This document shows positions 14,392-31,268 of a stretch of 64,000 bases of DNA, in pieces. The notes beneath the pieces were generated by a model that had not been told where the DNA came from, did no database searches, and saw nothing but the letters and a program-made list of their open reading frames with translations. Position numbers and translations under genes: made by a program. Source of the stretch: Bdellovibrionota bacterium (GTDB lineage: Bacteria > Bdellovibrionota > UBA1018 > CAIPTA01 > JAALKR01); contig CBDBMJ010000003.1 of the NCBI GenBank assembly GCA_965207455.1, positions 54,197 to 118,196 on the forward strand, read 5' to 3'. Within the stretch, counting starts at the first letter, position 1; every line of letters starts with the position of its first letter.

Positions 14392-14597
14392 GGTCCCAGG
14401 TCCGTGAGCATTTCCACCCCACCCACATCCGTTAGGTACACATGACCCGCGGGGCACACATGCTGTTCCACTTTTCTGGAAACATCATCGGGACGAATCC
14501 CACGAATCACAGGTATTGAGGAAAAATTGGTCTTACAGATGGGACAATCCAATGCTCGTTCCAAGGGATGCTTGGGTAGGGAATGTGCTTTTGTCAT
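14388..14597 (-). CDS. Small zinc-ribbon-like hypothetical protein (CPICK...CPAGH)
   Basis: 69-aa ORF with CxxC...C...H spacing; downstream of the paralog pair on the same strand. Confidence 0.35.
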   Translation of the reverse strand: MTKAHSLPKHPLERALDCPICKTNFSSIPVIRGIRPDDVSRKVEQHVCPAGHVYLTDVGGVEMLTDLGP

Positions 14598-14707: not shown

Positions 14708-14804
14708 TTTGTAATAAATTAAAATTTATGTATTTAAATTTTTTGGTTAGCTGCCGGTTGCATTTTTTGATGAGCAATCATCAGCATCAGTTGATGCGAA
14801 AGGC
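14708..14804. repeat. 97-bp direct repeat copy 1 (3' end of CDS + 3' UTR)
   Basis: Identical to 15524..15620 at the nucleotide level. Confidence 0.85.
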
Positions 14805-15502
14805 TCTTTATAGCTCATGCCTCGTTCTTTGAGGCTGGTGTAGTCGTCATTTCTTTTCAATTCAGTACAGAGGTTATTTAACTTCTGTACTTGTTTCGCT
14901 AACCTTTTAGCTTCTGCTTCCGCTTCTTGAGCTTCAGTTATTGCTTCTTCAACTTCTTTTTCTCCAATCAAATTTTTAAATCTTTTTTCCTTGATTACAA
15001 GCGCCAGCTCAGACTCTACTCTTGTACTTACTTGAGAACCTATTTCATCTTCTATATTCGTCTTATATCTATCAAGCAGATCAGCGCCAAAACCCTTAGT
15101 ATATCCAGAAAAAATACAAGTAAATATACCTTCTTTAAGTAATTTATAATTAGTCAAGAGAACATCTGATCTAGTCGAGACTCCACGGAGTATAAATCTT
15201 GAAATTATACTTGGCTCTTCTGTTGCCTCACATCTAGAATAATTTTCAGAGATATAAGTTGCGATATGAGACTTTAGCTTTTCCCTGATCACAGTATCTG
15301 TGGAAGAAATAGTTTTTTGATATTCCGCTGTCTTACTTTCCGCATCTCTAACTCTCTCTTTTGCACGTATGAATTTCTCCTCAGCAGAAACAGGTTTCAC
15401 CGATGAATCATCACTCTCAGGATTCAGCGCATGTCCAATTGTTGGTGATGCTATGGAAAGCGCTATTGCTGTTATCATTACTATATTTTTTGTTTTTATC
15501 AT
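14747..15502 (-). CDS. Secreted coiled-coil protein, paralog A (conserved C-terminal ...PFASTDADDCSSKNATGS)
   Basis: Signal peptide MIKTKNIVMITAIALSIASPTIGHA. Clear homology to 15563..16240. Last 19 codons and 3' UTR identical to paralog B. Confidence 0.6.
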   Translation of the reverse strand: MIKTKNIVMITAIALSIASPTIGHALNPESDDSSVKPVSAEEKFIRAKERVRDAESKTAEYQKTISSTDTVIREKLKSHIATYISENYSRCEATEEPSIISRFILRGVSTRSDVLLTNYKLLKEGIFTCIFSGYTKGFGADLLDRYKTNIEDEIGSQVSTRVESELALVIKEKRFKNLIGEKEVEEAITEAQEAEAEAKRLAKQVQKLNNLCTELKRNDDYTSLKERGMSYKEPFASTDADDCSSKNATGS

Positions 15503-15523
15503 TTTTTTATCCTCAGGGAGTAG

Positions 15524-15620
15524 TTTGTAATAAATTAAAATTTATGTATTTAAATTTTTTGGTTAGCTGCCGGTTGCATTTTTTGATGAGCAATCATCAG
15601 CATCAGTTGATGCGAAAGGC
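15524..15620. repeat. 97-bp direct repeat copy 2
   Basis: Identical to 14708..14804. Confidence 0.85.
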
Positions 15621-16240
15621 ACTTTATAGTCTAGACGTTGATCTAGGATAATAGCGATGTCATCTCTTATTGCTCTATCAAGGAGGTTCTCTAATTTTAG
15701 AAGTTGCATAGCCAATTGAATAGCTTTTTCTTCTGCATATGCAAATTTTCTTTCTGCATCTAGATCTTCTTCCGCACTTATAGCATCGTTTATATCCTTT
15801 TTTTCAGCTTCTACTTTTGTACTTACTTGAAGCTCTATTTCATCACCCAGCATTTCAAAATACGTTTTATTTATACTACCTTTAGTAAATCCATGAAAAA
15901 TGCATCTCGATATTCCTATTTCGATTCCTTCATTACGATCAACTGGTATGCTTCTATTGTTCAAATAACGATAGTCCGCACCCATTATCCGAATATCGTT
16001 TATTTCTTCTTCCTTGCACCTAGTATAATTTTTAGAAATATAAGATGAGAGATGAGACTTTATTTCTTTATTTTTAGAATCAAGTTCCACTTGATATTCC
16101 ACAATCACTTCATTTAAAACCGCGGTCCTCTGCTTAGAGTTCTTTGACAAATCATCATCAGAATATCCAATTGTTGGTAAGGCTATGGCAAGTACCATTG
16201 CTGTTATCGCTATTATATTTTTATTGCTTGTTTTCATCAT
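15563..16240 (-). CDS. Secreted coiled-coil protein, paralog B
   Basis: Signal peptide MMKTSNKNIIAITAMVLAIALPTIGYS; shared YTRC...CIFHGFTKG core and identical C-terminus. Confidence 0.6.
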   Translation of the reverse strand: MMKTSNKNIIAITAMVLAIALPTIGYSDDDLSKNSKQRTAVLNEVIVEYQVELDSKNKEIKSHLSSYISKNYTRCKEEEINDIRIMGADYRYLNNRSIPVDRNEGIEIGISRCIFHGFTKGSINKTYFEMLGDEIELQVSTKVEAEKKDINDAISAEEDLDAERKFAYAEEKAIQLAMQLLKLENLLDRAIRDDIAIILDQRLDYKVPFASTDADDCSSKNATGS

Positions 16241-16449: not shown

Positions 16450-17553
16450 TTATGTGTTTGGTTGAAGAGTGAGTACTTCTGCTTCTATCCAGGAGCCTGC
16501 CCCTGTTTGGGTTATGAGTCGGGGGTTGTGGAGTTGAAACATGGTGGGTTCTTCGGCAAAGGCAAGAGGGTATTCCGTTATGGTCACTAGGGCTTTGGTG
16601 AGTTTATAGGAAGGAGGCAAAAATCCTCCGATGGTGTCCACCAATCGGGACTGCACACAACGCTTCCAAAGGGCAGGGCCTCTGTGAATAGCTGTTAAAT
16701 AAAATCCAAAATTTCGCAGTTGACGAAGAATGGGTGCTACATCCATATAATTCTCTTTGATTGGGATTTGAACCACATGTATGCCAGCATTGATCATTTG
16801 CTTGCGCTTTTCTTCTTGGGCGGGAGCGTCCCCGATAAATACAATGGTTTTTTCCTCTCTATTTTGCACCAAGTGGGATTCCATCGGTATGGCCCCAAAG
16901 GGGTCCAGCACACATACCCAGTCTTGGAGGGAAACAATACTATCTTCCCGATAGGCTGCTTCCACGTCGAAAAGAAGAATGTCGTAGAAAAATGGAGTGC
17001 TCTTATTGTGCACACTCACCCGTACTATCTTTTTCTCATCGTCTATCTTTAAATCCCAAATTAGTTTTATTTGTGGGAGAAAGCGGTTGATGGATTTTTT
17101 GTAATCTTCATACAAGAGTTGGCAAAGGTGAGCTTCCTCTCCGTCGGCAATAATTACCTCTAAACCGTATTGCTCTAAACTTTGTATACCCTTGCCGCTA
17201 ATACTTTGTGTGGGATGGAGAGTACCAATTAACACTCTGGGAATGCCCATGTTTCGTATGCTTTCCGTTACTGGAGGAATGCGCTGGTAGGTGGGGTTGG
17301 GCTCCAAACTTAAGTATAGGGAAAGCTCCTCTGGCCTGGAGTGATCGTCGATGGTGTTCCACGCTTGGACCACACCATCTTCCTTGTCGCCCGGTTGAAA
17401 AACCGCTTTAGCCAGCACAGTACTTCCTCTGGCAATAATTGCGGACCAGGTGCTCTCCAAGGGTTGACCTATTTTTACTGGCGGTCGTCGACCCTCCAAA
17501 ACCAACTTATGGGTTTGGAGTAACATCTTTCTATCTAAATTCTCAAAGGTCAT
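16450..17553 (-). CDS. RibD-family (deaminase-like + RibD_C reductase-like) protein with degenerate deaminase active site
   Basis: N-half aligns to the CDA fold (…YLSLEPNPTYQRIPPVTESIRNMGIPRVLIG… versus …YVTLEPCxHxGRTPPCADALIEAGVARVVVA…) but lacks the HAE/PCxxC zinc ligands. C-half matches RibD_C topology. Confidence 0.45.
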   Translation of the reverse strand: MTFENLDRKMLLQTHKLVLEGRRPPVKIGQPLESTWSAIIARGSTVLAKAVFQPGDKEDGVVQAWNTIDDHSRPEELSLYLSLEPNPTYQRIPPVTESIRNMGIPRVLIGTLHPTQSISGKGIQSLEQYGLEVIIADGEEAHLCQLLYEDYKKSINRFLPQIKLIWDLKIDDEKKIVRVSVHNKSTPFFYDILLFDVEAAYREDSIVSLQDWVCVLDPFGAIPMESHLVQNREEKTIVFIGDAPAQEEKRKQMINAGIHVVQIPIKENYMDVAPILRQLRNFGFYLTAIHRGPALWKRCVQSRLVDTIGGFLPPSYKLTKALVTITEYPLAFAEEPTMFQLHNPRLITQTGAGSWIEAEVLTLQPNT

Positions 17554-19860: not shown

Positions 19861-20796
19861 ATGAAGTGGAAATTTCCTCCAGCTTTAGCGTCGGATCAAG
19901 CAATCGGGGTGGTGGCACCCTCGAGCTTTGTGGATAATACATTCTTGCAATCAGGGCAAAAAAAATGCAGTCAGCTGGGCTTAAAACTCCACTATGACGA
20001 ATCCATATTGCAGAAAAAATTGTTCTTCGCAGGCGAAGACTCTCAAAGGGCAGAGAATTTTATTGCTGCCCATACTAGCGAGACCAATAATATGCTTTGG
20101 TGTGCACGAGGAGGCTACGGGGCTGCTCGTATTCTTCCCCTATTGGAGGAAAAAAAATTCCATACAACACTCCAAGAAAATCCAAAACTCCTTATTGGTT
20201 ACTCGGACTCCACAGCTCTCTTTACCTATTACCTACAAAGGGGAGGAGTTTCCTGTTTACACGCTCCCTTAATGGCAGCTCCCAGTTGGTTAGATACGAC
20301 AGAAAAAGATTCTACCGACTTTCTCAATATCCTTCATGGAACCACAGGTCTGGGCAAAGCCTCCCATACCGCAAAATGGAATACCCTTTTTTTAGGAAAC
20401 CGTGGGACAGCTGAAGGAATTCTCATGGGAGGAAATATTAGCGTGCTATGTTCTTTAGTGGGTACGCCTTGGCAGCCCAAGTTTCAAGGAGGGATTGTGC
20501 TACTGGAAGATTGTAACGAACCCCCTTACCGGCTTCACCGTATGCTTACCCAATTGGATCAGGCCGGTTGTTTCGACGGAATACGAGGAGTAATTCTCGG
20601 CGACTGCACCCACGGAGTGCCCAAAGGCACTACCTGGGAAACGGTCTTTTCCGACATACTCGTTCCCAAATGTCTCGTGCTTCATGGTGCTCCCGTGGGA
20701 CACAGCAAGCGCAACAGCCCTCTCCCACTAGGGGTGCGAGCTAGAATCAACTCCCAAGGAAAACTGGAGTTATTGGAGCAGGTGGTAGGGCTCTAG
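19861..20796 (+). CDS. ldcA: LD-carboxypeptidase (S66 family)
   Basis: VVAPSS...LW...GG...LIGYSDSTAL nucleophile-elbow region; 311 aa. Confidence 0.75.
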   Translation: MKWKFPPALASDQAIGVVAPSSFVDNTFLQSGQKKCSQLGLKLHYDESILQKKLFFAGEDSQRAENFIAAHTSETNNMLWCARGGYGAARILPLLEEKKFHTTLQENPKLLIGYSDSTALFTYYLQRGGVSCLHAPLMAAPSWLDTTEKDSTDFLNILHGTTGLGKASHTAKWNTLFLGNRGTAEGILMGGNISVLCSLVGTPWQPKFQGGIVLLEDCNEPPYRLHRMLTQLDQAGCFDGIRGVILGDCTHGVPKGTTWETVFSDILVPKCLVLHGAPVGHSKRNSPLPLGVRARINSQGKLELLEQVVGL

Positions 20797-20806
20797 GATT
20801 ATTAAG
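20760..20806. repeat. Imperfect ~45-bp direct repeat, left copy (covers last 12 codons of ldcA)
   Basis: aaaactggagttattgg[agcaggtg]gtagggctctaggattatta versus 22216..22256 aaaactggagttattgg[g]ggtaggactctaggattatta. Confidence 0.75.
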
Positions 20807-21431
20807 AGACCCAAAATTTCTGTAATTCATCAATAAAGCTCTGGTAAGCCTCTTCAAAGCTAGGTGCTTCTTTGATTCCTGAAACAGCACTTGACCAACC
20901 GATCTTCAGAAGGCTCAAATCTATGGTTTTTAAATGCTGGATAAGATCTTTAGGAATAACTGTTTCTCGATAATTGAAACAAGCTTCAAGAGAACGAAAT
21001 AAATTGTTTTTTTCAGCTCTTGGAAGAAAGTAGGATAAGTCAAATATATCCTTTGAGCGTGAATTGTACTTTCCAAGATCCACTAGTGCATGAATTTTTT
21101 CTGCAATCATTGTTTCTATAGGATAAACAAACCAAGTCAGTTCATTTTCTCCAATCAGCTCTGGTGTTTTAATTTGAAGAGGAGAAGGAACAATAGGATC
21201 ACCAATTCCTAGGTCAAATTGAATAATCTGGAACTTTTTTATATTTTTAGGTATCTCGCCAATCCCAGCACGAAATACTTGTCGAACTCCACCATACTCG
21301 CCCTGAGTTTTAAGATCTATTTCTTTTTCAAACCTAAACCAAACAGCATCATTAAAAGTTTTTTCTACGACTACCTTAACAGCATCAAGATCAATTGTAT
21401 ACCTGCTGGATTTATAAATACGTAGTCCCAC
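20802..21431 (-). CDS. abiEii: AbiEii/DUF1814 nucleotidyltransferase toxin (type IV TA / abortive infection); N-terminus ambiguous
   Basis: IETMIAEKIHALVDLGKYNSRSKDIFDL matches the AbiEii signature. First canonical start is GTG at 21431, but the in-frame upstream 33 codons encode ...LVFKGGYVGL (the conserved GG nucleotide-binding motif) with no ATG/GTG/TTG; in-frame stop at 21531. Confidence 0.6.
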   Translation of the reverse strand: MGLRIYKSSRYTIDLDAVKVVVEKTFNDAVWFRFEKEIDLKTQGEYGGVRQVFRAGIGEIPKNIKKFQIIQFDLGIGDPIVPSPLQIKTPELIGENELTWFVYPIETMIAEKIHALVDLGKYNSRSKDIFDLSYFLPRAEKNNLFRSLEACFNYRETVIPKDLIQHLKTIDLSLLKIGWSSAVSGIKEAPSFEEAYQSFIDELQKFWVS

Positions 21432-21557
21432 ATAGCCACCCTTGAAAACAAGAGATTTGTAGAGTGTTGCATTTGATGTAATTCTGACAACTAAGATTAT
21501 TTTTTTTAGCCCAATTTGAAAGCTTCTGTTTTATCGAGATGCTCTGATTCTTTATAC

Positions 21558-22124
21558 TCATAAAATGATGGCCTCCCAATATTTATCAAAGGTTTTTTTT
21601 AGGTTTAGTGCAGTTGCCATTTTTCCAAGTTTCGTTTCTGTAGTAAGGTCATCTTTAAGAGCACGTCTTGTTGCATTTATCGCAATTCTAAGACCGAGTT
21701 TCGTTGCAAATTTTAGTGATTCAATAAGTGTGCGCTCAATATTTGTGATTTTAAAGCATCCTCGATCTTCGATTCCTTTAGTAAAAGGTGTGCTTGTTCT
21801 AAGACATTTATATTTTTTGCGTTCATTTTTTTTTGCTTGAGGTACGATAAGCCAAACTTGCTGAGGAGCCTGATCAATGAGTCCGTAATGAAAAAGAGCA
21901 GAGAGCCCACTTACGGCAGCATCTGGTCCAAAATACTTGTATGCCATAGCAAAATCCAGCTCTTCTGGATCAATGGAAGACTTTGGATGCATATAAAGAC
22001 CACGATCAATTCGTAGGAGCTTTTCCTGCTTCACCCACCTTGAAAGCGTGTGTCGCCCAATGCCCGCGCTGCTTTGAGCTTCTTTCGCATTGAATATTCC
22101 AAGTTTTTTTAGTTTGCTAGGCAT
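21558..22124 (-). CDS. abiEi: AbiEi antitoxin / transcriptional regulator
   Basis: N-terminal wHTH LGIFNAKEAQSSAGIGRHTLSRWVKQEKLLRIDRGLY typical of AbiEi_4; 188 aa; directly upstream of abiEii. Confidence 0.65.
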   Translation of the reverse strand: MPSKLKKLGIFNAKEAQSSAGIGRHTLSRWVKQEKLLRIDRGLYMHPKSSIDPEELDFAMAYKYFGPDAAVSGLSALFHYGLIDQAPQQVWLIVPQAKKNERKKYKCLRTSTPFTKGIEDRGCFKITNIERTLIESLKFATKLGLRIAINATRRALKDDLTTETKLGKMATALNLKKTFDKYWEAIIL

Positions 22125-22136
22125 CTTATTCTATTA

Positions 22137-22182
22137 TGCACCAAATCCGACATTTTTCAACAAAAATGTCGGATTTGGTGCA
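22137..22182. promoter_or_regulatory. Perfect 21-bp inverted repeat with 4-nt loop, 13 nt upstream of abiEi start (candidate AbiEi operator and/or terminator of upstream lipoprotein gene)
   Basis: tgcaccaaatccgacattttt-caac-aaaaatgtcggatttggtgca; arms are exact reverse complements. Confidence 0.55.
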
Positions 22183-22215
22183 TATACGATAGCAGCCATG
22201 GAGCATAAGTACCTA

Positions 22216-22256
22216 AAAACTGGAGTTATTGGGGGTAGGACTCTAGGATTATTAGG
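22216..22256. repeat. Imperfect direct repeat, right copy (ldcA-tail remnant overlapping lipoprotein stop)
   Basis: See left copy 20760..20806. Confidence 0.75.
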
Positions 22257-23004
22257 GTAGGGGCCACAAGCGAAACACGCTTTCTGTTTTCGATATCCAC
22301 TCCCCCCGTTCAAAGGGTGTTTTCACGGTATAAGGTGATTTAGCAAAACGGAAAAGCAGGGGCGGGTAGGTTTTATCTTCTTTTTGCCACTGGGGATTTT
22401 GTCTTCCTTTTGCGTGACGAAAGTTTAAGAAGTCGAAGTGTATGTACACCTCCTTTGTGTTTCCAGAGGCAAGAACTCGCCCATCTGGAGTAAGTCGCTT
22501 GGAGTAATCTATTGACGGCAGGCCCATTCGATTCATGGTAATTTCGTCTTTAATCTGAGTATATTCACAGAGATTTATATTTTCTTTTTGGGTAATATGA
22601 ACACGTCCGTGGCTCACGCCCCCATCCTTTCGTCGACCAAATACTTCAAAAGATTTTCTATTACTCAGTTTCTTTCCCTCCTTTCCCCAAAGTTCGTAAA
22701 GAAAAACCATGGACTCTTCTGGAAATAAACCGCAAGAAGGAATTTTATATACTTTCAGAAGTTTCCTGCCACCAAGGAAGCTTACTTCTATTTTCTCTTC
22801 TGTATGGCGCTCGTCGGTTGCAGCTAGGCTATCGCTTAAGGTATTTAGAGTGCCCTTCCAAGTGCCCTCTAGTTTTTCAAAAGAGAAGCTCTTCCAACTT
22901 TGGTTCATTTTGGTACACTCAAAGCATAAAGAATTTAGTCTTTGCCCCGCACAGCCACTCAAAAATAAACCCAATACGCCAATAGAAAAAAGTAAACGCA
23001 CCAT
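22252..23004 (-). CDS. Lipoprotein of unknown function
   Basis: Lipobox LFLSGCAG; 250 aa; no family recognised; sits between the AbiE and HipBA modules. Confidence 0.5.
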   Translation of the reverse strand: MVRLLFSIGVLGLFLSGCAGQRLNSLCFECTKMNQSWKSFSFEKLEGTWKGTLNTLSDSLAATDERHTEEKIEVSFLGGRKLLKVYKIPSCGLFPEESMVFLYELWGKEGKKLSNRKSFEVFGRRKDGGVSHGRVHITQKENINLCEYTQIKDEITMNRMGLPSIDYSKRLTPDGRVLASGNTKEVYIHFDFLNFRHAKGRQNPQWQKEDKTYPPLLFRFAKSPYTVKTPFERGEWISKTESVFRLWPLP

Positions 23005-23092
23005 TTTTTATGCCTCCTTATAGAAGACATATCGGCAGCAGTTATTTTTACTTGAGCACTATTTATCACCGTCAAAGAATTGACAATTTATT

Positions 23093-24313
23093 TCATGAAT
23101 ACATTTTTTTTGCTTTTTTTAACTCTGCATGTTCGAACGCTGAGGCCATGCGATCGATTTCTTTTTTACTTAAGCCAAATTGTTGGGCAATATCGCGCCA
23201 GCTAGAAACAGCCGTTGCCACCTGCTTCACAATCTTATACGCTTGATTTTTTTCTAGTCTAAATTCGTCAATAACAGATAGAGCTGTATCAATAGAGGCT
23301 GTTGAGTCATTGAAGCTAATTGAAGTTGAAAGGATACGGTCCTTTATGTCGATGGGATTTGGGTTTATATCGTAAGCAGGTGAGAGGCGCCAGCCTTTAT
23401 GTCGTTCATATAAAAAACCATGGTTTCGCAAATGATCGTCGGTATTAGAAATAAGTACGGTGAAGACAATCCTGCGCCAAAGTTCTGCCATATCTTGATC
23501 GGGTTTTTCACCATACTGTATAAGGGCATGGGCGATCTCAAGATAGCTGCGCCTATCATTATCTTTTGCACCAAGCATACTCATGGCAGAGAGGAATGGA
23601 ATGCGTTTATTACCTATTCGATCAAAGCGCTGTATAATGAGAACAGGTTTTTTCTGGATATTTTCTAAGCGCACTTCAGGGATCTGTAGACCAGCTTTTT
23701 GTGCCAGTTTAAGAGCCACAGCTTCCCATACAACAACATTATATTCATCATCTTTTTTAGGAAATTTAGCAATAGCGAGACGACCATTTTTATCATACAC
23801 AGATACCTTTGGTCTTGCACCACCAAGAGAAGAGCCTGGAGCAAGAAGTATTTTTAAATCATCCTCTGTTTCATTATCATTTAAGAAATTCTCGGAGGCA
23901 GACAAAAGCCTTGGTAAATCAATAAGTGGTGGAATGCTTGTTCTGTTTTTTCGAGTTAAGTATGGTCCTTGGGATTGCAGGGAAAAGCGCAGCGCGCCCT
24001 GACGTGATTCATCGTTGACGGCAAGGAGATAATCTATTTCTAAAAGAGGTTTCATGGCTTGCCCTTTCCTTTTTGCACGCATACTTTCAAAGCGCTGAAT
24101 GAGAATATGTCCCCAGCGATCTGGAGCAGAGTCTCCAATTGCGCCAAATAAAGCCTGACCGGGGCATGTATAAAAAGCACCCTCGGTGAGTTGCAAGGCC
24201 GGATCAATGGCAAATCTTTCGCGATTCTTGCGCTGGTGACACCATAATTTACCCACTTGCTGGCGCTCATCACCAAGTTGGATAGAAACATAAATTTGCT
24301 TACTATTTGCCAT
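23093..24313 (-). CDS. hipA: HipA-family Ser/Thr kinase toxin (type II TA)
   Basis: N-terminal couple_hipA-like domain (IYVSIQLGDERQQVGKLW) and HipA_C kinase core; start taken at MANSKQ (24313), overlapping the hipB stop by 11 nt. Confidence 0.75.
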   Translation of the reverse strand: MANSKQIYVSIQLGDERQQVGKLWCHQRKNRERFAIDPALQLTEGAFYTCPGQALFGAIGDSAPDRWGHILIQRFESMRAKRKGQAMKPLLEIDYLLAVNDESRQGALRFSLQSQGPYLTRKNRTSIPPLIDLPRLLSASENFLNDNETEDDLKILLAPGSSLGGARPKVSVYDKNGRLAIAKFPKKDDEYNVVVWEAVALKLAQKAGLQIPEVRLENIQKKPVLIIQRFDRIGNKRIPFLSAMSMLGAKDNDRRSYLEIAHALIQYGEKPDQDMAELWRRIVFTVLISNTDDHLRNHGFLYERHKGWRLSPAYDINPNPIDIKDRILSTSISFNDSTASIDTALSVIDEFRLEKNQAYKIVKQVATAVSSWRDIAQQFGLSKKEIDRMASAFEHAELKKAKKMYS

Positions 24314-24638
24314 TGTTCTCTCGATTGATCCGAGGAAACCGAATGCGTTTTGGCAGGTTTTCTGTTTCCAGATCCAGTCCAATAATATCGCGGTGTGGGC
24401 CGGCTATATTCTGCAAGTGATCAGTCATGCCTAGTACGAATAGAGCACAGGCATATGATCCCATTGAAACAGAGGGCTCACCTCTTTCAATTTTGCCTAA
24501 AGTTATAACTGAAAAGCCTGCACGTTCAGCCATAATTTTTGTGGGGATACGCCGTCGTCGTCGAGCGACAGAGATATTTTCACCAAGCTCACGCATGGCT
24601 CTTTTTGCAGGAATGGGTAATCGTGGTTTACGTTTCAT
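24303..24638 (-). CDS. hipB: HipB-like XRE-family HTH antitoxin
   Basis: HTH ISVARRRRRIPTKIMAERAGFSVITLGKIERGE; 111 aa; translationally coupled to hipA. Confidence 0.7.
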   Translation of the reverse strand: MKRKPRLPIPAKRAMRELGENISVARRRRRIPTKIMAERAGFSVITLGKIERGEPSVSMGSYACALFVLGMTDHLQNIAGPHRDIIGLDLETENLPKRIRFPRINRENNGK

Positions 24639-24650
24639 CTGTTCACCTTA

Positions 24651-24701
24651 ATATATCTTATAATATATACTATAGTATTTAAGAATAATTATAAGATATA
24701 T
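24651..24701. promoter_or_regulatory. hipBA operator candidate: 14-bp perfect inverted repeat (atatatcttataat / attataagatatat) enclosing a 12-bp palindrome atactatagtat
   Basis: Read directly, 13 to 63 nt upstream of the hipB start on the minus strand. Confidence 0.55.
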
Positions 24702-24896
24702 TATACTCCCTTGCTGTTCAGAGACTCTTTAAATTATGGTGAAGCCTCCACTGAGCACTTAAGCAATAAAAAATATGCTTAACTGTCAAAACTACTATAA
24801 GCATATGTTATTTAAGGCTATTTTTTATGTATTTAAGGGAGCGACCTCAATCCTACTGCCCACATCACTCTGCAAAATAACGAATTCCAGCTAAAT

Positions 24897-25556
24897 CTAT
24901 TCAGCAGGTTGGTGTCGAATAATAGTACCGTCGATCATGTAAATTACATCTTCCGCAATATTGACTGCATAATCACCAATATGCTCCAAGTGACGAGAGA
25001 CGGATAAATAATGGATAAGAACCTCCACGTTATTTGGATCCTTGCGAATGCAATCATAGACTTGGCGATAGGTCTGCCTATTGATTGCATCCAGCTCATC
25101 ATCGAGACCAACAGTTTCCCGTGCAAGCTCCCCATCCCTATCAATCATAGAGTCCAGTGCTCTTCGGAGGATGGTGCGCGCTTTTTTGGCCATCTCTTCA
25201 AAATCAAATGGCGCTTCAATGGGATCCATCTTAGAAATAACTGCGGCTCGCCTTGAAATATTAACAGCCAAATCTCCCACTCTCTCTAAATCGTTATTAA
25301 TTTTCAAGACACCGATCAAAAAACGCATATCTATGGCAACTGGCTGATGAAGAGCCAGCACTTTTAAGCATTCTTCTTCTAAAGCCACCTCAGCTAAATC
25401 CACCTCATGATCCAGCTCTTTAAGATGCTTAGCTAGTTTTTCATCTCGGTGCTTCAACGCTGTTATAGCTTTCCCTAGATTTCCTTCCACCATGGCACTT
25501 AATAAAAGTAATTTTCGTTTAATTGCATCTAATTCCCATTCTAATCGTTTAACCAT
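24897..25556 (-). CDS. phoU: Phosphate signalling complex protein PhoU
   Basis: Two PhoU repeats (DLERVGDLAVNI, RHLEHIGDYAVNIAE). Confidence 0.9.
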   Translation of the reverse strand: MVKRLEWELDAIKRKLLLLSAMVEGNLGKAITALKHRDEKLAKHLKELDHEVDLAEVALEEECLKVLALHQPVAIDMRFLIGVLKINNDLERVGDLAVNISRRAAVISKMDPIEAPFDFEEMAKKARTILRRALDSMIDRDGELARETVGLDDELDAINRQTYRQVYDCIRKDPNNVEVLIHYLSVSRHLEHIGDYAVNIAEDVIYMIDGTIIRHQPAE

Positions 25557-25589
25557 AATACCATTCCCTCTTTCTTATTATAATCCATA

Positions 25590-26354
25590 TTAGCCAAACC
25601 TACCCGTAATATAATCTTCTGTTTCTTTCTTCTTTGGATTTGTGAATAAATTTTTTGTTTCTCCGAACTCTACTAAAACCCCGTTAACGAGAAAGGCTGT
25701 TTCGTCGGAAATACGAGTTGCTTGCTGCATATTATGGGTCACAACCAGTATTGTGTAATTTTTTTTCAAGGAATGGATTAAGTCTTCCACTCCTGCTGTG
25801 GAGCGGGGGTCTAGGGAGGAGCAAGGCTCATCCATTAAAATTACGTCCGGCTTCATGGCTATGGCACGAGCAATGCAAAGGCGCTGCTGTTGTCCACCGG
25901 AAAGACTTTGAGCTGGATCGTCTAGACGTTTTTCCACTTCCTTCCATAGAGAAGCCTCTTTCAAAGAATTTTCCACTAGCTCATCGTCGTCCCCTTTATA
26001 CCCGTGAAGTTTTGGTCCCCAAATAATATTGTCATAGATGGACTTGGGAAAAGGGTTGGGTCGCTGAAAAACCATACCAATTCTTTTCCGAATCTCCACA
26101 GGGTCCGCTTGTGGTGAATATAAATTATTCCCTCGGTACAGCACTTCTCCTTTTATTACTGCACTGGGAATAAAATCGTTCATTCGATTGAAAACTCGTA
26201 AAAGAGTACTTTTACCACATCCAGATGGCCCAATCACCGCAGTAACCTTGTTCTCCTGAATTTGTAAATCTACTTTTTTTACTGCCTCTTCTTCACCGTA
26301 AAAACAAGATAGGTTACTTACGGATAAAACAATATTTTTATTTATATTTTCCAT
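25590..26354 (-). CDS. pstB: Phosphate ABC transporter ATP-binding protein
   Basis: Walker [10 protein letters not shown], signature LSGGQQQR, Walker B ILMDEP; start taken at MENINKN to abut pstA. Confidence 0.9.
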
Positions 26355-26355
26355 G

Positions 26356-27216
26356 CTAGGTTTGATTCCTTTTTTGTGACCTGTGACGAATCCATAGAGC
26401 ACCACAATTCATTAGAAATAAAGTAGCTAAGAAAACAATAATCGTTGCTGCAGAAAGGCTGTGGAAGTCTGCTTGTGGACGAGAAGCCCAGTTAAATATT
26501 TGAATAGGAATCGTAGTGAATGGGTCCATTGGGCTGCTAGGAATAAAGGCCACATAGGCATAGGCACCTAGAATAAGTAAGGGAGCAGCCTCGCCAATGG
26601 CACGGGAGAGGGAAAGAATAAGTCCCGTCATAATTCCCGGTGTGGCTGCGGGTAGCACCTGTCCAAAAACTGCTTGCCAGCGCTTGGCTCCAAGGGCGTA
26701 TGCTGCGTGACGAATGGAGTCCGGTACTGCTTTAATCGCCTCTTGGGTGGTAATAATAATCATGGGCAATACCAATAGGCTTAACATCAAAGCACCAGAA
26801 ATCAAACTTCTTCCTAAATCCATAAATCGTACAAATATGATCAATCCAAGCAGACCATAAATTACAGAGGGCACTCCAGCCAAATTCGATAGGTTTAAAT
26901 GTATGAAATTAGTAAAGCGGTTCTTTTCCATATATTCTTCCAAATAAATAGCAACACAAACACCCATGGGAATAGAAAATATCCCCGTTAATAGCATCAC
27001 CCAAATGGTTCCTCCAATTGCAGCTCTTAATCCAGCTTCCTTAGGCATCCATGACGTCCAGTTGGTAAGCAGGTTCCAACTTAACCAGCCAGCTCCTTTC
27101 ACAATAATGCTCGCAATCAATGTGACTAAAATAAGAGTGGACAACCAAGCAAATCCTAAGCAAGTCCATCGAAACAAGCGCTCCATTCGTTTCCTGCGTT
27201 CTATATTTTCCATCAT
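26356..27216 (-). CDS. pstA: Phosphate ABC transporter permease PstA
   Basis: Six TM helices, EAA-like loop; position in operon. Confidence 0.85.
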
Positions 27217-28130
27217 CTGGAAACCACCTTATGAGCAACGGCATTGAGACCAAAGGTCATAAAAAATAATAACGCCCCAACAGCCATACTACTTTTAAAT
27301 TCAATTCCCTCAGCCGATATATCCCCCAAACTAATTTGCACGATATAGGAAGTCATGGTTTGAATACTTTCCAGTGGGTTAATGGTAAGATTGGGTGTGG
27401 CTCCTGCGGCCAACGTAACTGCCATTGTTTCTCCAATGGCCCGGGAAATAGCAAGAATAAAAGCTGCCAATATCCGAGAAAAAGTGGCAGGAACCACAAG
27501 TTGGGTAACCACCTCATAGGTAGTGGCACCCATGGCATAACCTCCTTGCCTTAAAGCAGGGGGTACGGAACGAAAAGCATCGTCGCATAAAGATGCCACT
27601 AGCGGTAAAATCATAATGGCTACAACAATGGATGCGCTAGCTGCATTAAACACTTGAATATTTGGGAAAAATATTCCCAACAATGGAGTAATAAAGGTAA
27701 GAGCAAAGTATCCATATACAATAGAGGGAATTCCTGCCAATAACTCTAAAATGGGTTTCATGATATCCCGGGTGCTGGGCCTGGAATACTCACTAAGATA
27801 AATAGCCGTAACTAGACCAATGGGAAGGGCCAGCGCACCTGAACACACCACCACCAGCAAAGTGCCACACACAAGAGGGAGCACGCCAAAGGATTTTGGC
27901 TCCAGTAAGGGCTCCCAACGGGTGCCTGTTAAAAAATCCAGTATGGGAACTTCTGCAAAAAACTGGAAGCTCTCGTCCAATAAGCACCATAAAATAACAA
28001 CTGTAATTAACAGGGTAAAAAGAGTACAAAGCAATAAAACAAGCTCTATTGCTTTTTCCTGTAGATTAGGCTTAATGTTAAAAAAACTCTTTACCATTAT
28101 ACGCTTACTGCTTTGCCAACTCTTGCTCAA
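27213..28130 (-). CDS. pstC: Phosphate ABC transporter permease PstC
   Basis: TM permease; operon position; start may be the internal MVKSFF. Confidence 0.85.
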   Translation of the reverse strand: MSKSWQSSKRIMVKSFFNIKPNLQEKAIELVLLLCTLFTLLITVVILWCLLDESFQFFAEVPILDFLTGTRWEPLLEPKSFGVLPLVCGTLLVVVCSGALALPIGLVTAIYLSEYSRPSTRDIMKPILELLAGIPSIVYGYFALTFITPLLGIFFPNIQVFNAASASIVVAIMILPLVASLCDDAFRSVPPALRQGGYAMGATTYEVVTQLVVPATFSRILAAFILAISRAIGETMAVTLAAGATPNLTINPLESIQTMTSYIVQISLGDISAEGIEFKSSMAVGALLFFMTFGLNAVAHKVVSR

Positions 28131-29064
28131 AAAGTTTTAAAACTGCTCTATATTTCTCACCAGACATGGGTACATAACCTACCTCAGAAGCAATATTTTC
28201 CACATTCTGCAAATAAAACTGCACGAACTTTCTTAGTCCTGGAATCTTTTTTGCTTCTTTCATATTTACATAAATAAAAATAGGCCGGGATAAGGGCTTG
28301 TAACTTCCAGTCCTAATACTTTCCATTGCTGGTGCCACAGGTGGAGCTTTTTTATTAGCAATGGGTACCGCACGAATTTTATCTTTATTTTCTTTGTAAT
28401 AAGCGTAGCCAAAGAAGCCTAAGGAATATTTACTATTGGCCACACCAATAACAAGAACGTTATCATCTTCACTTTTCGTATAATCCGACCTACATCGTTG
28501 GGATTTTCCATTAATGTTTTTTGTAAAATAGTCGAAAGTACCAGAGTCTCCCCCTGGACCGTAAAGCTGTAGTGGTTTGTTGGGCCAACTTGGTCGCACA
28601 TCCCTCCAAGTTTTCACAGGACTATTTCTATCCCATATTTTTTTCAATTCTTTAACGCTAAGATAATCTGCCCATGTATTATCCTTATGAACCACAATAG
28701 ATATTCCATCGTACGCCACGGGTAACTCCAAGTATGAAATATTATTTTTCTTACTCCTTTCTATCTCGTTTGGTTTAATTTGTCGGGAAGCATTGTTAAT
28801 ATGGGTTGTTCCTCCAAGAAACTTCTTAAATCCTCCACCAGTTCCTGATATACCAATCACCACATTGATTTTTGGGTGGACTTTGCGCATTTCTTCTGCA
28901 ACAGCCTCAGTAACAGGATAGACCGTACTCGAGCCATCAACCTGCAAAACCTTGCTGTTATTTCCACCTTTTGTACAGCTCGCTACCAAAACCAAAGCAA
29001 GACAAGCAAAACAAGCAAAACAAGCAAAACCTATGGATACACCTCTCATGCTATTTTTTTTCAT
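28105..29064 (-). CDS. pstS: Phosphate-binding protein PstS
   Basis: PBP fold SGSSTVYP...GSGTGG; start at 29064 is preceded by AAGGAGG 8 nt upstream. Signal peptide contains the 9-bp x3 repeat encoding FACFACFAC. Confidence 0.85.
   Translation of the reverse strand: MKKNSMRGVSIGFACFACFACLALVLVASCTKGGNNSKVLQVDGSSTVYPVTEAVAEEMRKVHPKINVVIGISGTGGGFKKFLGGTTHINNASRQIKPNEIERSKKNNISYLELPVAYDGISIVVHKDNTWADYLSVKELKKIWDRNSPVKTWRDVRPSWPNKPLQLYGPGGDSGTFDYFTKNINGKSQRCRSDYTKSEDDNVLVIGVANSKYSLGFFGYAYYKENKDKIRAVPIANKKAPPVAPAMESIRTGSYKPLSRPIFIYVNMKEAKKIPGLRKFVQFYLQNVENIASEVGYVPMSGEKYRAVLKLFEQELAKQ
29006..29032. repeat. 9-bp tandem repeat (caagcaaaa) x3 inside the pstS signal peptide
   Basis: Read directly. 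Confidence 0.7.
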
Positions 29065-29135
29065 CCCACTGACCTCCTTTTTGCCCTTTCTATAACTCTC
29101 CTTATAGGTAAGAAATATTAGCAAAGTGTGAGAAA

Positions 29136-30548
29136 TCAGGGAGATTGTAAAAAAATTGAGAAATTACTACCCTTGCCCTGCTCACTCAGCACTGTGGCTC
29201 TCCCACCATGTACTGCCGCTATATGCTTTACAATGGCAAGCCCTAAGCCCGTGCCTCCCAGATGGCGACTACGAGACTTATCCACACGATAAAATCGCTC
29301 AAATAAACGGGGTAAATGGACCTGAGCAATGCCCTCCCCGGAATCCACCACAGAAACCATCACTTCTCCATCCTTGTTGCAAGCATTCAGCTCCACCTCA
29401 CTTCCAGCGGGACTGTAGTAAATAGAGTTGTCCAATAAATTTACCAACGCCTGCTCCAACAAAGAGGGGTTGGCTAAAACTTGAAGATCCTTGGGACACT
29501 TCACTCCAAAGCGGATCCCTTGGGCTTGGGCGTTTTGTGAGCAAGCCTCCAGTGCACTTTCCAGTATGGGCAACAAGGCTTTGGACTCCAGCGAAATACC
29601 CCTCCCTTTTTTTTCTATGCGAGACAGTAGCAGTAAATCTTCCGTAATGGCATGTAGTCGATTGGTGTGCTTGAGAACAATAGTTAAAAAATTTTTCCTT
29701 TCTTCCTCCTTAAGGTTTTTACTCTCTAGGAGCGTTTCCACAAATCCTTTAATAGAGGTAAGGGGGGTGCGCAGTTCATGGGAAATATTTTCCATAAATT
29801 CTTTGCGATGGTTTTCTAGTTGGTGCATACGAGTGGTATCGTAGAATACTAACAAAACACCAATATCCTCCCCACTGGCTCCCAATAAATGACTACTGTT
29901 GACATACCAAAAAATTTCATCCAATCCCATATTTACTTCCACCCCTGAATTGTGAGAGCTCGTATCCCTAAGTGCCTCTTTGGCAATTTTCAACAACTCA
30001 GGTATGCGTATAACCTCCTCCACAGCTCTACCACGAGCCTTCTCCCCAGAAACTTGCAGTAGGTTAGCTGCCACTTCGTTGAGCTGAACAATATGCCCCT
30101 GCCTATCGATAGCAATCACTCCTTCCATCATACTGGAAAGCATGGCCTCCTGTTCCTGCTTTTGTTCAGAAATAGTACGGAGACGATTTTTAAGTTGGTT
30201 GCCCATTCGATTTAGTGCCACACCCAAACTATGGATTTCCACCGCACTAAAGTGAGATAAATCTACCCTACCCGTAAAATCCCCCTTAGAAATTCGCTTA
30301 GCTTTATTGCGGATGGCTTCCAATGGACGACTTATCCGACGAGAATAAACCAAACTCACCAAAGAAATCAAAATAATAACTACAAGCCCTATCCATATAA
30401 ACTCCTTATACAAAGGGGAGAGAAGTTTTATTATATCCGTTTCAGGCATACCAACATATACTGCCAGCCCGATAAAAATAAGAAGCAGTGAAAAGGTAAT
30501 TACAAAATAAGATGTGTAGAGTTGCCAAAACAATTTTTTTCGTCGCAT
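29136..30548 (-). CDS. phoR: Phosphate regulon sensor histidine kinase
   Basis: N-terminal TM, HAMP/PAS, H-box SHELRTPL, HATPase G-boxes. Confidence 0.85.
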   Translation of the reverse strand: MRRKKLFWQLYTSYFVITFSLLLIFIGLAVYVGMPETDIIKLLSPLYKEFIWIGLVVIILISLVSLVYSRRISRPLEAIRNKAKRISKGDFTGRVDLSHFSAVEIHSLGVALNRMGNQLKNRLRTISEQKQEQEAMLSSMMEGVIAIDRQGHIVQLNEVAANLLQVSGEKARGRAVEEVIRIPELLKIAKEALRDTSSHNSGVEVNMGLDEIFWYVNSSHLLGASGEDIGVLLVFYDTTRMHQLENHRKEFMENISHELRTPLTSIKGFVETLLESKNLKEEERKNFLTIVLKHTNRLHAITEDLLLLSRIEKKGRGISLESKALLPILESALEACSQNAQAQGIRFGVKCPKDLQVLANPSLLEQALVNLLDNSIYYSPAGSEVELNACNKDGEVMVSVVDSGEGIAQVHLPRLFERFYRVDKSRSRHLGGTGLGLAIVKHIAAVHGGRATVLSEQGKGSNFSIFLQSP

Positions 30549-30551
30549 AAT

Positions 30552-31268
30552 TTATTCCTTAAATCGATAGCCTATGCCTCGAATAGTCTCCACCCAATCT
30601 CCATGTTTACCTAGCTTTTTTCGTAACCCCACAATTTGTACATCCACGGATCGATCCGTAACAGGATAGTTTGGCCCCTGAACCCCTTGAACAATTTGAT
30701 TTCGCGTAAACACCCAACCAGGATGGGTGGCCAAGTATGTGAGCAAGCGAAATTCAGTTACACTTAAAGGAAGTGCTTTGCCATGTATGCTCACCTCATG
30801 CTTGCCCACATGAATATAAAGACCATGAATTTTAATTTCTTCCCTCTCCTCCCAACCAGAGCTTGGCTGTTTTTTTGTTCCCTCACTTCTTCTCAATAAC
30901 GTTTTCACACGAGCCACAAGCAAACGTAGGCTGAAGGGTTTTGTAATATAGTCATCAGCCCCCATTTCCAGACCAGCGATAATGTTTTCTTCGTTGCCCT
31001 TAGCAGTCACCATAATAATAGGAATGTGGGCTGTACTTGAATCGTTCTTCAATTGTCGACAAACATCCATGCCACTCATGGACGGCAACATTAAGTCAAG
31101 AAGGGTGATATCTATGGGGTCGAGCGAAGAGTTCCGAATCCTTTCCAACCCCTTTTCCCCTGAAAAAGAACCTGATACATTATAACCCTCCTGGATCAAA
31201 GTATAGCGAAGCAAGTTTAGTATATCTTCCTCGTCTTCGATAATATGTACGTTGGCTTTCATCCCCAC
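30552..31268 (-). CDS. phoB: Phosphate regulon response regulator (OmpR family)
   Basis: Receiver domain with DL...LP and a winged-helix C-terminus; adjacent to phoR. Confidence 0.85.
   Translation of the reverse strand: MGMKANVHIIEDEEDILNLLRYTLIQEGYNVSGSFSGEKGLERIRNSSLDPIDITLLDLMLPSMSGMDVCRQLKNDSSTAHIPIIMVTAKGNEENIIAGLEMGADDYITKPFSLRLLVARVKTLLRRSEGTKKQPSSGWEEREEIKIHGLYIHVGKHEVSIHGKALPLSVTEFRLLTYLATHPGWVFTRNQIVQGVQGPNYPVTDRSVDVQIVGLRKKLGKHGDWVETIRGIGYRFKE

Follow-up and report, generated by a model that had tools for sequence, protein, structure and literature searches.

HipBA modules, for which that of Escherichia coli K-12 is the model, are toxin-antitoxin (TA) systems of type II in which the gene for a helix-turn-helix antitoxin, hipB, precedes and overlaps that for the toxin, hipA, whose promoters carry palindromic operators and which are patchily distributed on mobile elements. 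The operator of the E. coli hipBA operon consists of four TATCC-N8-GGATA palindromes. N-subdomain-1 of HipA forms a lid over the kinase core and is homologous to the HipS antitoxin (PMC8262856), and in Table 1 of Gerdes et al. 2021 (PMC8262856) no hipBA clade other than clade I had an experimentally analyzed module. AbiE systems are type IV TA and abortive-infection systems, represented by AbiEi-AbiEii of Streptococcus agalactiae and Rv2827c-Rv2826c of Mycobacterium tuberculosis, in which abiEi is followed by abiEii and the two overlap at ATGA; in S. agalactiae, two 23-bp inverted repeats 3 bp apart lie in the abiE promoter (PMC7319586). Here we analyze a 64,000-nucleotide (nt) stretch of a Bdellovibrionota genome (GCA_965207455.1, contig CBDBMJ010000003.1, positions 54,197 to 118,196; hereafter, the window), in which the interval between ldcA and phoU holds an AbiE cassette, a gene for a 250-residue lipoprotein and a hipBA pair. 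With a probability of roughly 0.8, we read this interval as a core lipoprotein gene with two unrelated, separately acquired TA cassettes inserted on either side of it. Both cassettes are of a well-known kind and current understanding of them is not overturned; the points of some interest are the attachment-site (att)-like borders of the AbiE cassette at a reused site, the lesions in both toxin genes, the layout of the likely HipB operator and an uncatalogued lipoprotein family.

The lipoprotein gene reported in a preliminary description of this DNA is present as an open reading frame (ORF) at 22252-23004 on the minus strand, with a strong AGGAGG ribosome-binding site. Its product begins with a signal peptide and lipobox, MVRLLFSIGVLGLFLSGC (LSGC, Cys18), and Cys18 is invariant across 52 sequences of its family, features from which it is predicted to be lipidated and exported. 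In eight of nine contigs from relatives (cited here by L numbers), the gene lies tail to tail with ldcA together with the genes for E1alpha and E1beta; the sole differing context is the 1.5-kb contig L001. L082, L083, L084, L170, L171/L172, L173 and L174 all preserve the gene order lipoprotein, convergent ldcA, E1alpha, E1beta. Identity to L170 is 77% for E1beta, 69% for E1alpha, 48% for LdcA and 44% for the lipoprotein, and the corresponding values for L082-L084 are 66-68%, 60%, 40-42% and 26-32%. The composition of the lipoprotein gene (42.4% GC, and 40% at third codon positions, GC3) equals the window mean (GC 42.9%; ORF mean 43.1 +/- 3.2, GC3 40.6 +/- 6.0). Identities ordered as vertical descent predicts, average GC and GC3, and kept synteny together argue that the lipoprotein is a resident of the locus, and we regard it as a core, vertically inherited gene of a Bdellovibrionota-like lineage, neither cargo nor a TA partner. 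The suggestion in the preliminary description that it is cargo or a partner of one of the modules fails on this synteny, which persists beside ldcA-E1alpha-E1beta down to 26-44% lipoprotein identity, in relatives that have neither hipBA nor AbiE there. A gene without a family, sitting between mobile modules, is easily mislabeled as island cargo; synteny, composition and repeat borders identify this one as resident.

Upstream of the lipoprotein gene, most relatives have genes for a dUTPase, a flagellin and a protein of ~800 residues. Neither hipBA nor AbiE was ever found beside the lipoprotein gene in the relatives examined, phoU likewise did not lie upstream of it there, and none of the hipBA homologues examined (L085-L089) adjoins a lipoprotein gene. 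A scan for PhoU in 185,579 species genomes gave a best match of at most 56% identity, and 80 loci had no lipoprotein gene, hipA or ldcA near phoU, so that the ldcA-phoU interval is not comparable as a unit.

On the ldcA side of the lipoprotein gene, the AbiE cassette comprises abiEi (21558-22124, minus strand; a 188-residue antitoxin/repressor) and abiEii (20802-21561, minus strand; a nucleotidyltransferase toxin gene, frameshifted). The two are bicistronic, the start of abiEii overlapping the stop of abiEi (ATGA), and both match their families in Pfam (AbiEi_4, 34.7 bits with the cut-off at 25; AbiEii, 59.2 bits with the cut-off at 22.5) and in PADLOC (AbiEi, 6.5e-29; AbiEii, 3e-29). The cassette lies between direct repeats of 45 nt at 20760-20804 and 39 nt at 22216-22254, which align at 84% identity (E = 4e-08), with a single gap of 6 nt. 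The left repeat is the functional 3' end of ldcA and encodes the LdcA C-terminus (...KLELLEQVVGL*), and the right repeat is a displaced copy of it. The final TTA of the left repeat is the stop codon of abiEii and that of the right repeat is the stop codon of the lipoprotein gene; because the latter forms the last three bases of the repeat, the borders exclude the lipoprotein. When one repeat and the 1450 intervening nt are removed in silico, the stop codons of ldcA (19861-20796, plus strand; an LD-carboxypeptidase with two Peptidase_S66 domains in Pfam, convergent on the minus-strand genes) and the lipoprotein gene come to lie 5 nt apart, tail to tail, an arrangement that we propose as ancestral.

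In composition, abiEii (GC 35.2%, GC3 24%) and abiEi (GC 39.5%, GC3 29%) make up the sole low-GC part of the ldcA-phoU interval. In hipA (GC 41.9%, GC3 33%) and hipB (GC 45.5%, GC3 35%), total GC is near average and GC3 is about one standard deviation low. The low-GC islet described earlier is real for AbiE and does not extend to the lipoprotein gene or, in total GC, to hipBA. By its borders and composition, the AbiE cassette appears to be a separate, sharply bounded 1.45-kb low-GC insertion between ldcA and the lipoprotein gene.

The junction between the lipoprotein gene and ldcA is a recurrent insertion site, variably occupied among relatives. It is empty in L084 and L170, where 20 nt and 14 nt, respectively, separate the two genes, and in L174, where they overlap by 4 nt. 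Elsewhere it holds an HNH endonuclease gene (L083, 8833-9726), a Y1 (IS200/RAYT-like) transposase gene (L171/L172, at L171 6020-6628) or genes for three unknown, partly secreted proteins (L082, 8905-12290; L173, 6750-9255); flanking direct repeats were searched for around the inserts of L082 and L083 and not found. The insertion hotspot that had been suspected for the whole interval is borne out on the ldcA side of the lipoprotein gene, where relatives carry other cargo; as a single islet it does not stand, the borders of AbiE and hipBA being separate.

In the window, the AbiE cassette would have integrated exactly at this junction, duplicating ~45 nt of the ldcA 3' end. The repeats look like the attL and attR left by a site-specific event, or else what remains of a larger element once integrated here. 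They enclose no gene besides abiEi and abiEii, and no recombinase or integrase, and we infer either a site-specific insertion mobilized in trans or the last remnant of a larger element. Like integrative islands and cis-mobilizable elements that target the 3' ends of genes and duplicate them as attL/attR, the cassette is bordered on each side by an imperfect repeat of the target 3' end, its GC content is foreign and its site is variably occupied in relatives. It differs from them in being only 1.45 kb long, in encoding no integrase or excisionase and in having a protein-coding target rather than a tRNA gene. Compared with known AbiE systems, with which it shares gene order, ATGA overlap and both the Pfam and the PADLOC families, it is set apart by the frameshifted toxin ORF and by standing alone within 39/45-nt direct repeats without a recombinase. 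The locus offers a minimal, cleanly delimited AbiE cassette, bordered by att-like repeats, at a site that has been used repeatedly. Its likely AbiEi operator (22135-22184) has two 23-nt arms (22135-22157 and 22162-22184) that are 100% complementary and 4 nt apart, compared with 23 bp and 3 bp in S. agalactiae, and it overlaps a promoter-like TTGAAA-16-CATAAT site just upstream of abiEi; through it, AbiEi would repress its own promoter.

On the other side of the lipoprotein gene, hipB (24303-24638, minus strand; a 111-residue XRE-type helix-turn-helix antitoxin/repressor with an AGGTG ribosome-binding site) precedes hipA (23093-24313, minus strand; a 406-residue HipA-family Ser/Thr kinase toxin, with its stop at 23093). 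The longest hipA ORF starts at TTG 24382; it is the ATG at 24313 (MANSKQIY...) that aligns with the starts of all homologues, and this start overlaps the hipB stop by 11 nt, in agreement with the translational coupling described earlier. HipA matches HipA_C (PF07804) at 171 bits against a cut-off of 30.5, over the full profile (1-213 of 213). It contains GSSLGGARPK, NTDDHLRNHG and SPAYD, the residues of which almost all fall in invariant columns among 26 subfamily sequences; we take these as putative counterparts of the E. coli HipA motifs, by analogy with which Asp292 would be the catalytic-motif Asp. HipB aligns over residues 4-99 with its best solved relative, PDB 9u9g_A (deposited as 'XRE family transcriptional regulator, HipB'; E = 1.9e-14), and scores below the curated cut-offs of HTH_31 (16.9 bits; cut-off 27) and TIGR03070 couple_hipB (19 bits; cut-off 71.65). 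No paper relevant to PDB 9u9g turned up in the literature. HipA would act as a Ser/Thr kinase toxin neutralized by HipB.

HipA has more than 8000 relatives below an E-value of 1e-10, the best of them 69-71% identical, and those with names span several phyla that are unrelated to one another (Legionella, Alpha- and Gammaproteobacteria, Rickettsiales, Opitutales, Phycisphaeraceae). The closest are each preceded by a HipB homologue of 110-113 residues with 61-64% identity, and the hipBA order is found in L085-L089. Among their surroundings are a prophage-like region that encodes a serine recombinase and a ParB-methyltransferase (L085), a neighboring tyrosine integrase (L087) and a neighboring yoeB/yefM pair (L088). 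Homologues of hipBA with 50-58% identity occur on 345 plasmids, and an alignment-based scan found others, at most 70% identical, on IMG/VR viral contigs; a scan of viral contigs with the single HipA protein found nothing. The identity of hipBA is at least that of E1beta to all syntenic relatives except L170 (66-77% for E1beta over the syntenic set), and the housekeeping protein PhoU, by comparison, has no match above 56% in the 185,579 species genomes. At the DNA level, homology between the window and L088 starts exactly at 24703, which is the outer edge of the distal operator arm, and homology with all modules ends at ~23100-23112, beside the hipA stop. These limits define the mobile unit as operator, hipB and hipA, at 23093-24703. 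We regard hipBA as a horizontally acquired, self-contained 1.6-kb type II module, and the accessory nature ascribed to both modules in the preliminary description agrees with the direct-repeat borders of AbiE and with the hipBA homologues on mobile elements.

This module has the hallmarks of the E. coli K-12 type: hipB followed by an overlapping hipA, a helix-turn-helix antitoxin, a full-length HipA_C domain, an N-terminal subdomain in the subfamily, palindromic promoter operators and a patchy distribution on mobile elements. Unlike this shared organization, the protein itself is only remotely related to the HipA of E. coli K-12 and Shewanella. By phmmer, it matches the E. coli HipA chains at E = 0.02-0.35 and Shewanella HipA at 0.06, and a subfamily profile recovered neither at 1e-3. 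Among solved kinases, Legionella HipT, a protein that lacks the N-subdomain, comes nearest to it (E = 6e-11). Because the matches to E. coli and Shewanella HipA are weak, the module apparently lies outside clade I of the Gerdes et al. scheme.

Both toxin genes carry lesions. In abiEii, a run of eight A (21500-21507) splits the gene, the first 20 codons lying in one frame and the rest, with the FKGG motif, in another that has no start codon. Deletion of one A yields a 252-residue AbiEii, for which the Pfam match covers profile positions 5-236 at 68.7 bits, compared with positions 48-236 at 59.2 bits before. The frameshift may reflect either a true pseudogene or an assembly error in the homopolymer. 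In L170 (8789-12057), the closest relative with genomic context, the ldcA, E1alpha and E1beta genes are each in fragments, most likely through frameshift errors of long-read assembly, and these split genes advise caution in calling the frameshift in the window biological. In HipA, 15 residues (consensus QSASFEYDxxWLKHP), several of them nearly invariant, are missing in frame between Arg31 and Glu32; the segment is present in all 25 aligned relatives, so that the deletion is unique to the window and distinguishes its copy from other HipBA modules. The deletion lies in N-subdomain-1 and leaves the kinase core and conserved motifs intact. The corresponding Pfam family, PF13657 (Couple_hipA), is undetectable in the window HipA even at E <= 1, whereas the relative P0088 matches it at 24.7 bits (cut-off 22.5). 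Judging by the conservation of the missing residues, the activity or control of HipA is probably altered.

Taken together, these lesions raise the possibility, which we consider serious though on balance improbable, that both TA modules are decaying relics, with abiEii a pseudogene, HipA inactivated or crippled and only the repressors/antitoxins and operators still functional. The split of abiEii upstream of its FKGG motif and the loss from HipA of near-invariant residues, together with any match to PF13657, are what such decay would leave. The HipA kinase domain, however, is complete and retains its conserved motifs, and apart from the deletion the hipA ORF is intact, with its overlap with hipB preserved. 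HipT is an example of a Hip kinase that lacks N-subdomain-1 and is nevertheless an active toxin (PMC8262856); loss of these residues need not therefore inactivate HipA, and the abiEii frameshift may be a homopolymer sequencing error. As a separate matter, an imperfect 14-nt inverted repeat (24202-24215 and 24305-24318, 13 of 14 positions complementary) pairs the hipA start region with the deletion junction; we considered it as an mRNA structure and dismissed it, since by a rough estimate it is about at chance level for a 5-kb region.

The lipoprotein has no match in Pfam, NCBIfam or PADLOC, and no member of its family matches any Pfam family; to that extent the earlier statement that it has no recognizable family stands. 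As an orphan it does not, because profile searches find at least 60 clusters. A single-sequence search of 5.8 billion proteins returned only the protein itself and one homologue with 47% identity, which, taken alone, would wrongly have confirmed orphan status; no recorded contig matched the window's lipoprotein exactly. A two-sequence profile gave 29 matches among 1.84 billion representatives, ~21 of them lipoprotein-sized or partial family members, and a 21-sequence profile reached the 60 clusters, all hypothetical and one labeled Bdellovibrionota. In the databases covered here the family is rare, its only taxonomic label to date being Bdellovibrionota, and it is a candidate for a new domain-of-unknown-function entry. 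Its 52 full-length members share 21 invariant columns, including Cys18, Cys27-x-x-Cys30, Cys91 and Cys146. The four invariant cysteines outside the lipobox probably form two disulfides in the predicted structure. A c-type heme site at the CxxC was rejected, the next residue being Thr (nearly invariant in the family) and not His.

An AlphaFold2 model from the 52-sequence alignment has a predicted local distance difference test score (pLDDT) of 85.9 and a predicted template-modeling score (pTM) of 0.79; a two-sequence input had given a pLDDT of 35, and the larger alignment was used instead. The model is all-beta, with ~10 long strands after the signal peptide, and the predicted fold is a calycin-like beta-barrel. 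Foldseek found no significant match to the model in the PDB, and calycin barrels align with only about half of the 250 residues at 4-16% identity. Compared with the ten-stranded barrels nitrobindin/Rv2717c, the S-type phycobilin lyase CpeS, the OlmO spirocyclase and a Riemerella hemophore, the window lipoprotein is lipid-anchored and has four conserved cysteines and extra N-terminal elements. It could be a periplasmic or outer-membrane-anchored barrel, probably disulfide-stabilized, that carries or binds a small hydrophobic ligand, a suggestion in which our confidence is low because it is drawn from the fold class. More tentatively still, the lipoprotein might found an uncatalogued family of lipid-anchored, cysteine-rich, calycin-like barrels that serve as a fixed envelope component, usually encoded downstream of flagellin and the ~800-residue protein and binding a small hydrophobic molecule, for example a tetrapyrrole or lipid, a proposal to which the reading of the hipBA operator given below is secondary.

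The constant neighborhood invites another explanation, namely that adjacency reflects shared function, the lipoprotein and LdcA acting together in the turnover of cell wall or peptidoglycan. The tail-to-tail arrangement is kept down to 26% identity, and in some relatives the genes are only 14-20 nt apart or overlap. We nonetheless find this explanation rather improbable. Convergent genes cannot share a transcript, unrelated genes have been inserted at the junction in at least five lineages (the window included), and on its upstream side the lipoprotein gene is instead co-oriented with the genes for flagellin or the ~800-residue protein. LdcA homologues, members of the Peptidase_S66 family, are cytoplasmic, whereas the lipoprotein is exported, with a predicted fold like that of ligand-binding barrels and unlike that of peptidoglycan enzymes.

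Upstream of hipB, a perfect inverted repeat has 16-nt arms at 24649-24664 and 24688-24703 (TAATATATCTTATAAT and ATTATAAGATATATTA), 23 nt apart, and ends 10 nt before the hipB ATG. The preliminary description had noted it with arms of 14 bp, and the repeat is real but longer. We shuffled the 258-nt hipB intergenic region and its 76%-AT core with dinucleotide composition preserved; a 16-nt arm was reached in 0 of 2000 shuffles of either, the maximum being 13. The 12-nt palindrome atactatagtat described as nested within the repeat is present in its spacer at 24667-24678. Its 6-nt arms are matched by nearly every shuffle, and it lies 3.5 nt off the outer center; being at chance level and off-center, it gives the nesting no weight. 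In L087, the operator arms themselves contain a related string, GTATACTATA.

The repeat recurs in homologous modules. In L085, L088 and L090, which share the operator motif TAATrTATCTTATwAT with the window, the motif TTAATGTATCTTATTAT lies at -68; its counterpart in the window, TAATATATCTTATAAT at -65, has the same orientation, and 15 of 17 bases are identical. Inverted copies lie 37-44 nt away, compared with 39 nt from start to start in the window. These contigs have three or four alternating copies ~37-44 nt apart (L085 3520-3670; L088 3520-3670; L090 800-950), of which the window, without the extra upstream copies, keeps only the two promoter-proximal ones. L087 has arms of 22-23 nt with related sequence, 39-40 nt apart. 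More distant modules (L093, L095, L097, L098) have other arm sequences at similar positions, which suggests that the operator arms change together; the 9-10-nt arms of the most distant modules are individually at chance level, and we relied on the closer ones.

We conclude that the inverted repeat is the likely HipB operator, and the earlier proposal to that effect is made credible by the shuffles and by recurrence in homologous modules. By binding two inverted 16-nt sites on either side of the promoter region, HipB would repress transcription. Set against the four TATCC-N8-GGATA palindromes of E. coli, an operator of two covarying inverted sites ~39 bp apart around the promoter would, if true, represent a different HipB-DNA architecture, one that may be common to a large, structurally uncharacterized HipA subfamily. 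Since AT makes up 76% of the region and TA-rich partial palindromes overlap throughout it, one might instead see in the repeat low-complexity sequence or a transcript hairpin. We judge this quite unlikely: no composition-matched shuffle reached 16 nt, a hairpin of pure A/T pairs with a 23-nt loop would be weak, motif, orientation, position and arm spacing recur in modules on unrelated contigs, and the arms of distant modules change together.

With the borders of both cassettes in hand, a single accessory defense/TA islet from ldcA to phoU, with the lipoprotein as cargo or as a third component of hipBA or AbiE, is very improbable: that AbiE, the lipoprotein gene and hipBA lie within 4 kb on one strand, that read-through from hipA into the lipoprotein gene is possible (no terminator-like site lies between them) and that the lipoprotein has no curated family are outweighed by its synteny with ldcA and the E1 genes in eight of nine contexts without either module, by hipBA homologues (L085-L089) without a lipoprotein neighbor, by AbiE direct repeats that leave the lipoprotein outside, by hipBA DNA homology that stops at the hipA stop and by the average GC and GC3 of the lipoprotein gene.

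Several observations do weigh against a core gene with two separately acquired cassettes. Direct repeats or a recombinase flanking hipBA were searched for and none found, and the total GC of hipBA is near the window mean, so that composition alone does not mark it as foreign. Relatives differ upstream of the lipoprotein gene, where some have flagellin and the ~800-residue gene and others a divergent gene of 959 residues, and because of this the state that preceded hipBA on that side is not reconstructable. The AbiE cassette encodes no integrase and its mechanism of integration is read from the repeats alone, and its frameshift, sitting in a homopolymer, could be an assembly error. No close relative came to light in which presence/absence polymorphism of AbiE or hipBA could be scored, the PhoU genome scan having given nothing above 56% identity. 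The placement in a Bdellovibrionota-like lineage draws on one labeled homologue and on gene content.

As to the wider layout, the minus strand holds every gene from 20802 to 31268. The 88-nt spacer between hipA and the lipoprotein gene (23005-23092) contains a promoter-like TTGTCA-17-AATAGT site and the AGGAGG ribosome-binding site, and no terminator-like site was found in it. At the far end, phoU (24897-25556, minus strand; confirmed by Pfam) is separated from hipB by the 258-nt AT-rich spacer with the likely operator (24649-24703). This spacer also contains an AT-rich inverted repeat of 17 nt (24766-24828; 88% complementary, 29-nt spacer), ~70 nt beyond the stop codon of phoU. It may serve as the pst-phoU terminator, or it may mark where the sequence present before the hipBA insertion ends. 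An Rfam scan of the whole window gave zero matches.

Further along the syntenic block, an ORF of 367 residues (16450-17553, minus strand) directly follows E1beta in all relatives, with 29-36% identity and no Pfam match, and is a second uncharacterized syntenic core gene. Next to it, at 14708-16240 on the minus strand, lie two paralogous low-GC genes (34-37% GC, GC3 25%) for secreted proteins of 251 and 225 residues, which have no Pfam or PADLOC match. The two proteins have a common C-terminus, PFASTDADDCSSKNATGS, and a 106-nt repeat, 99% identical, occurs at 14708-14813 and 15524-15629. The pair stands between the 367-residue ORF and a 64-residue ORF (14397-14582), the homologues of which are adjacent in L083, L084 and L174; it is a third insertion in the same syntenic block.

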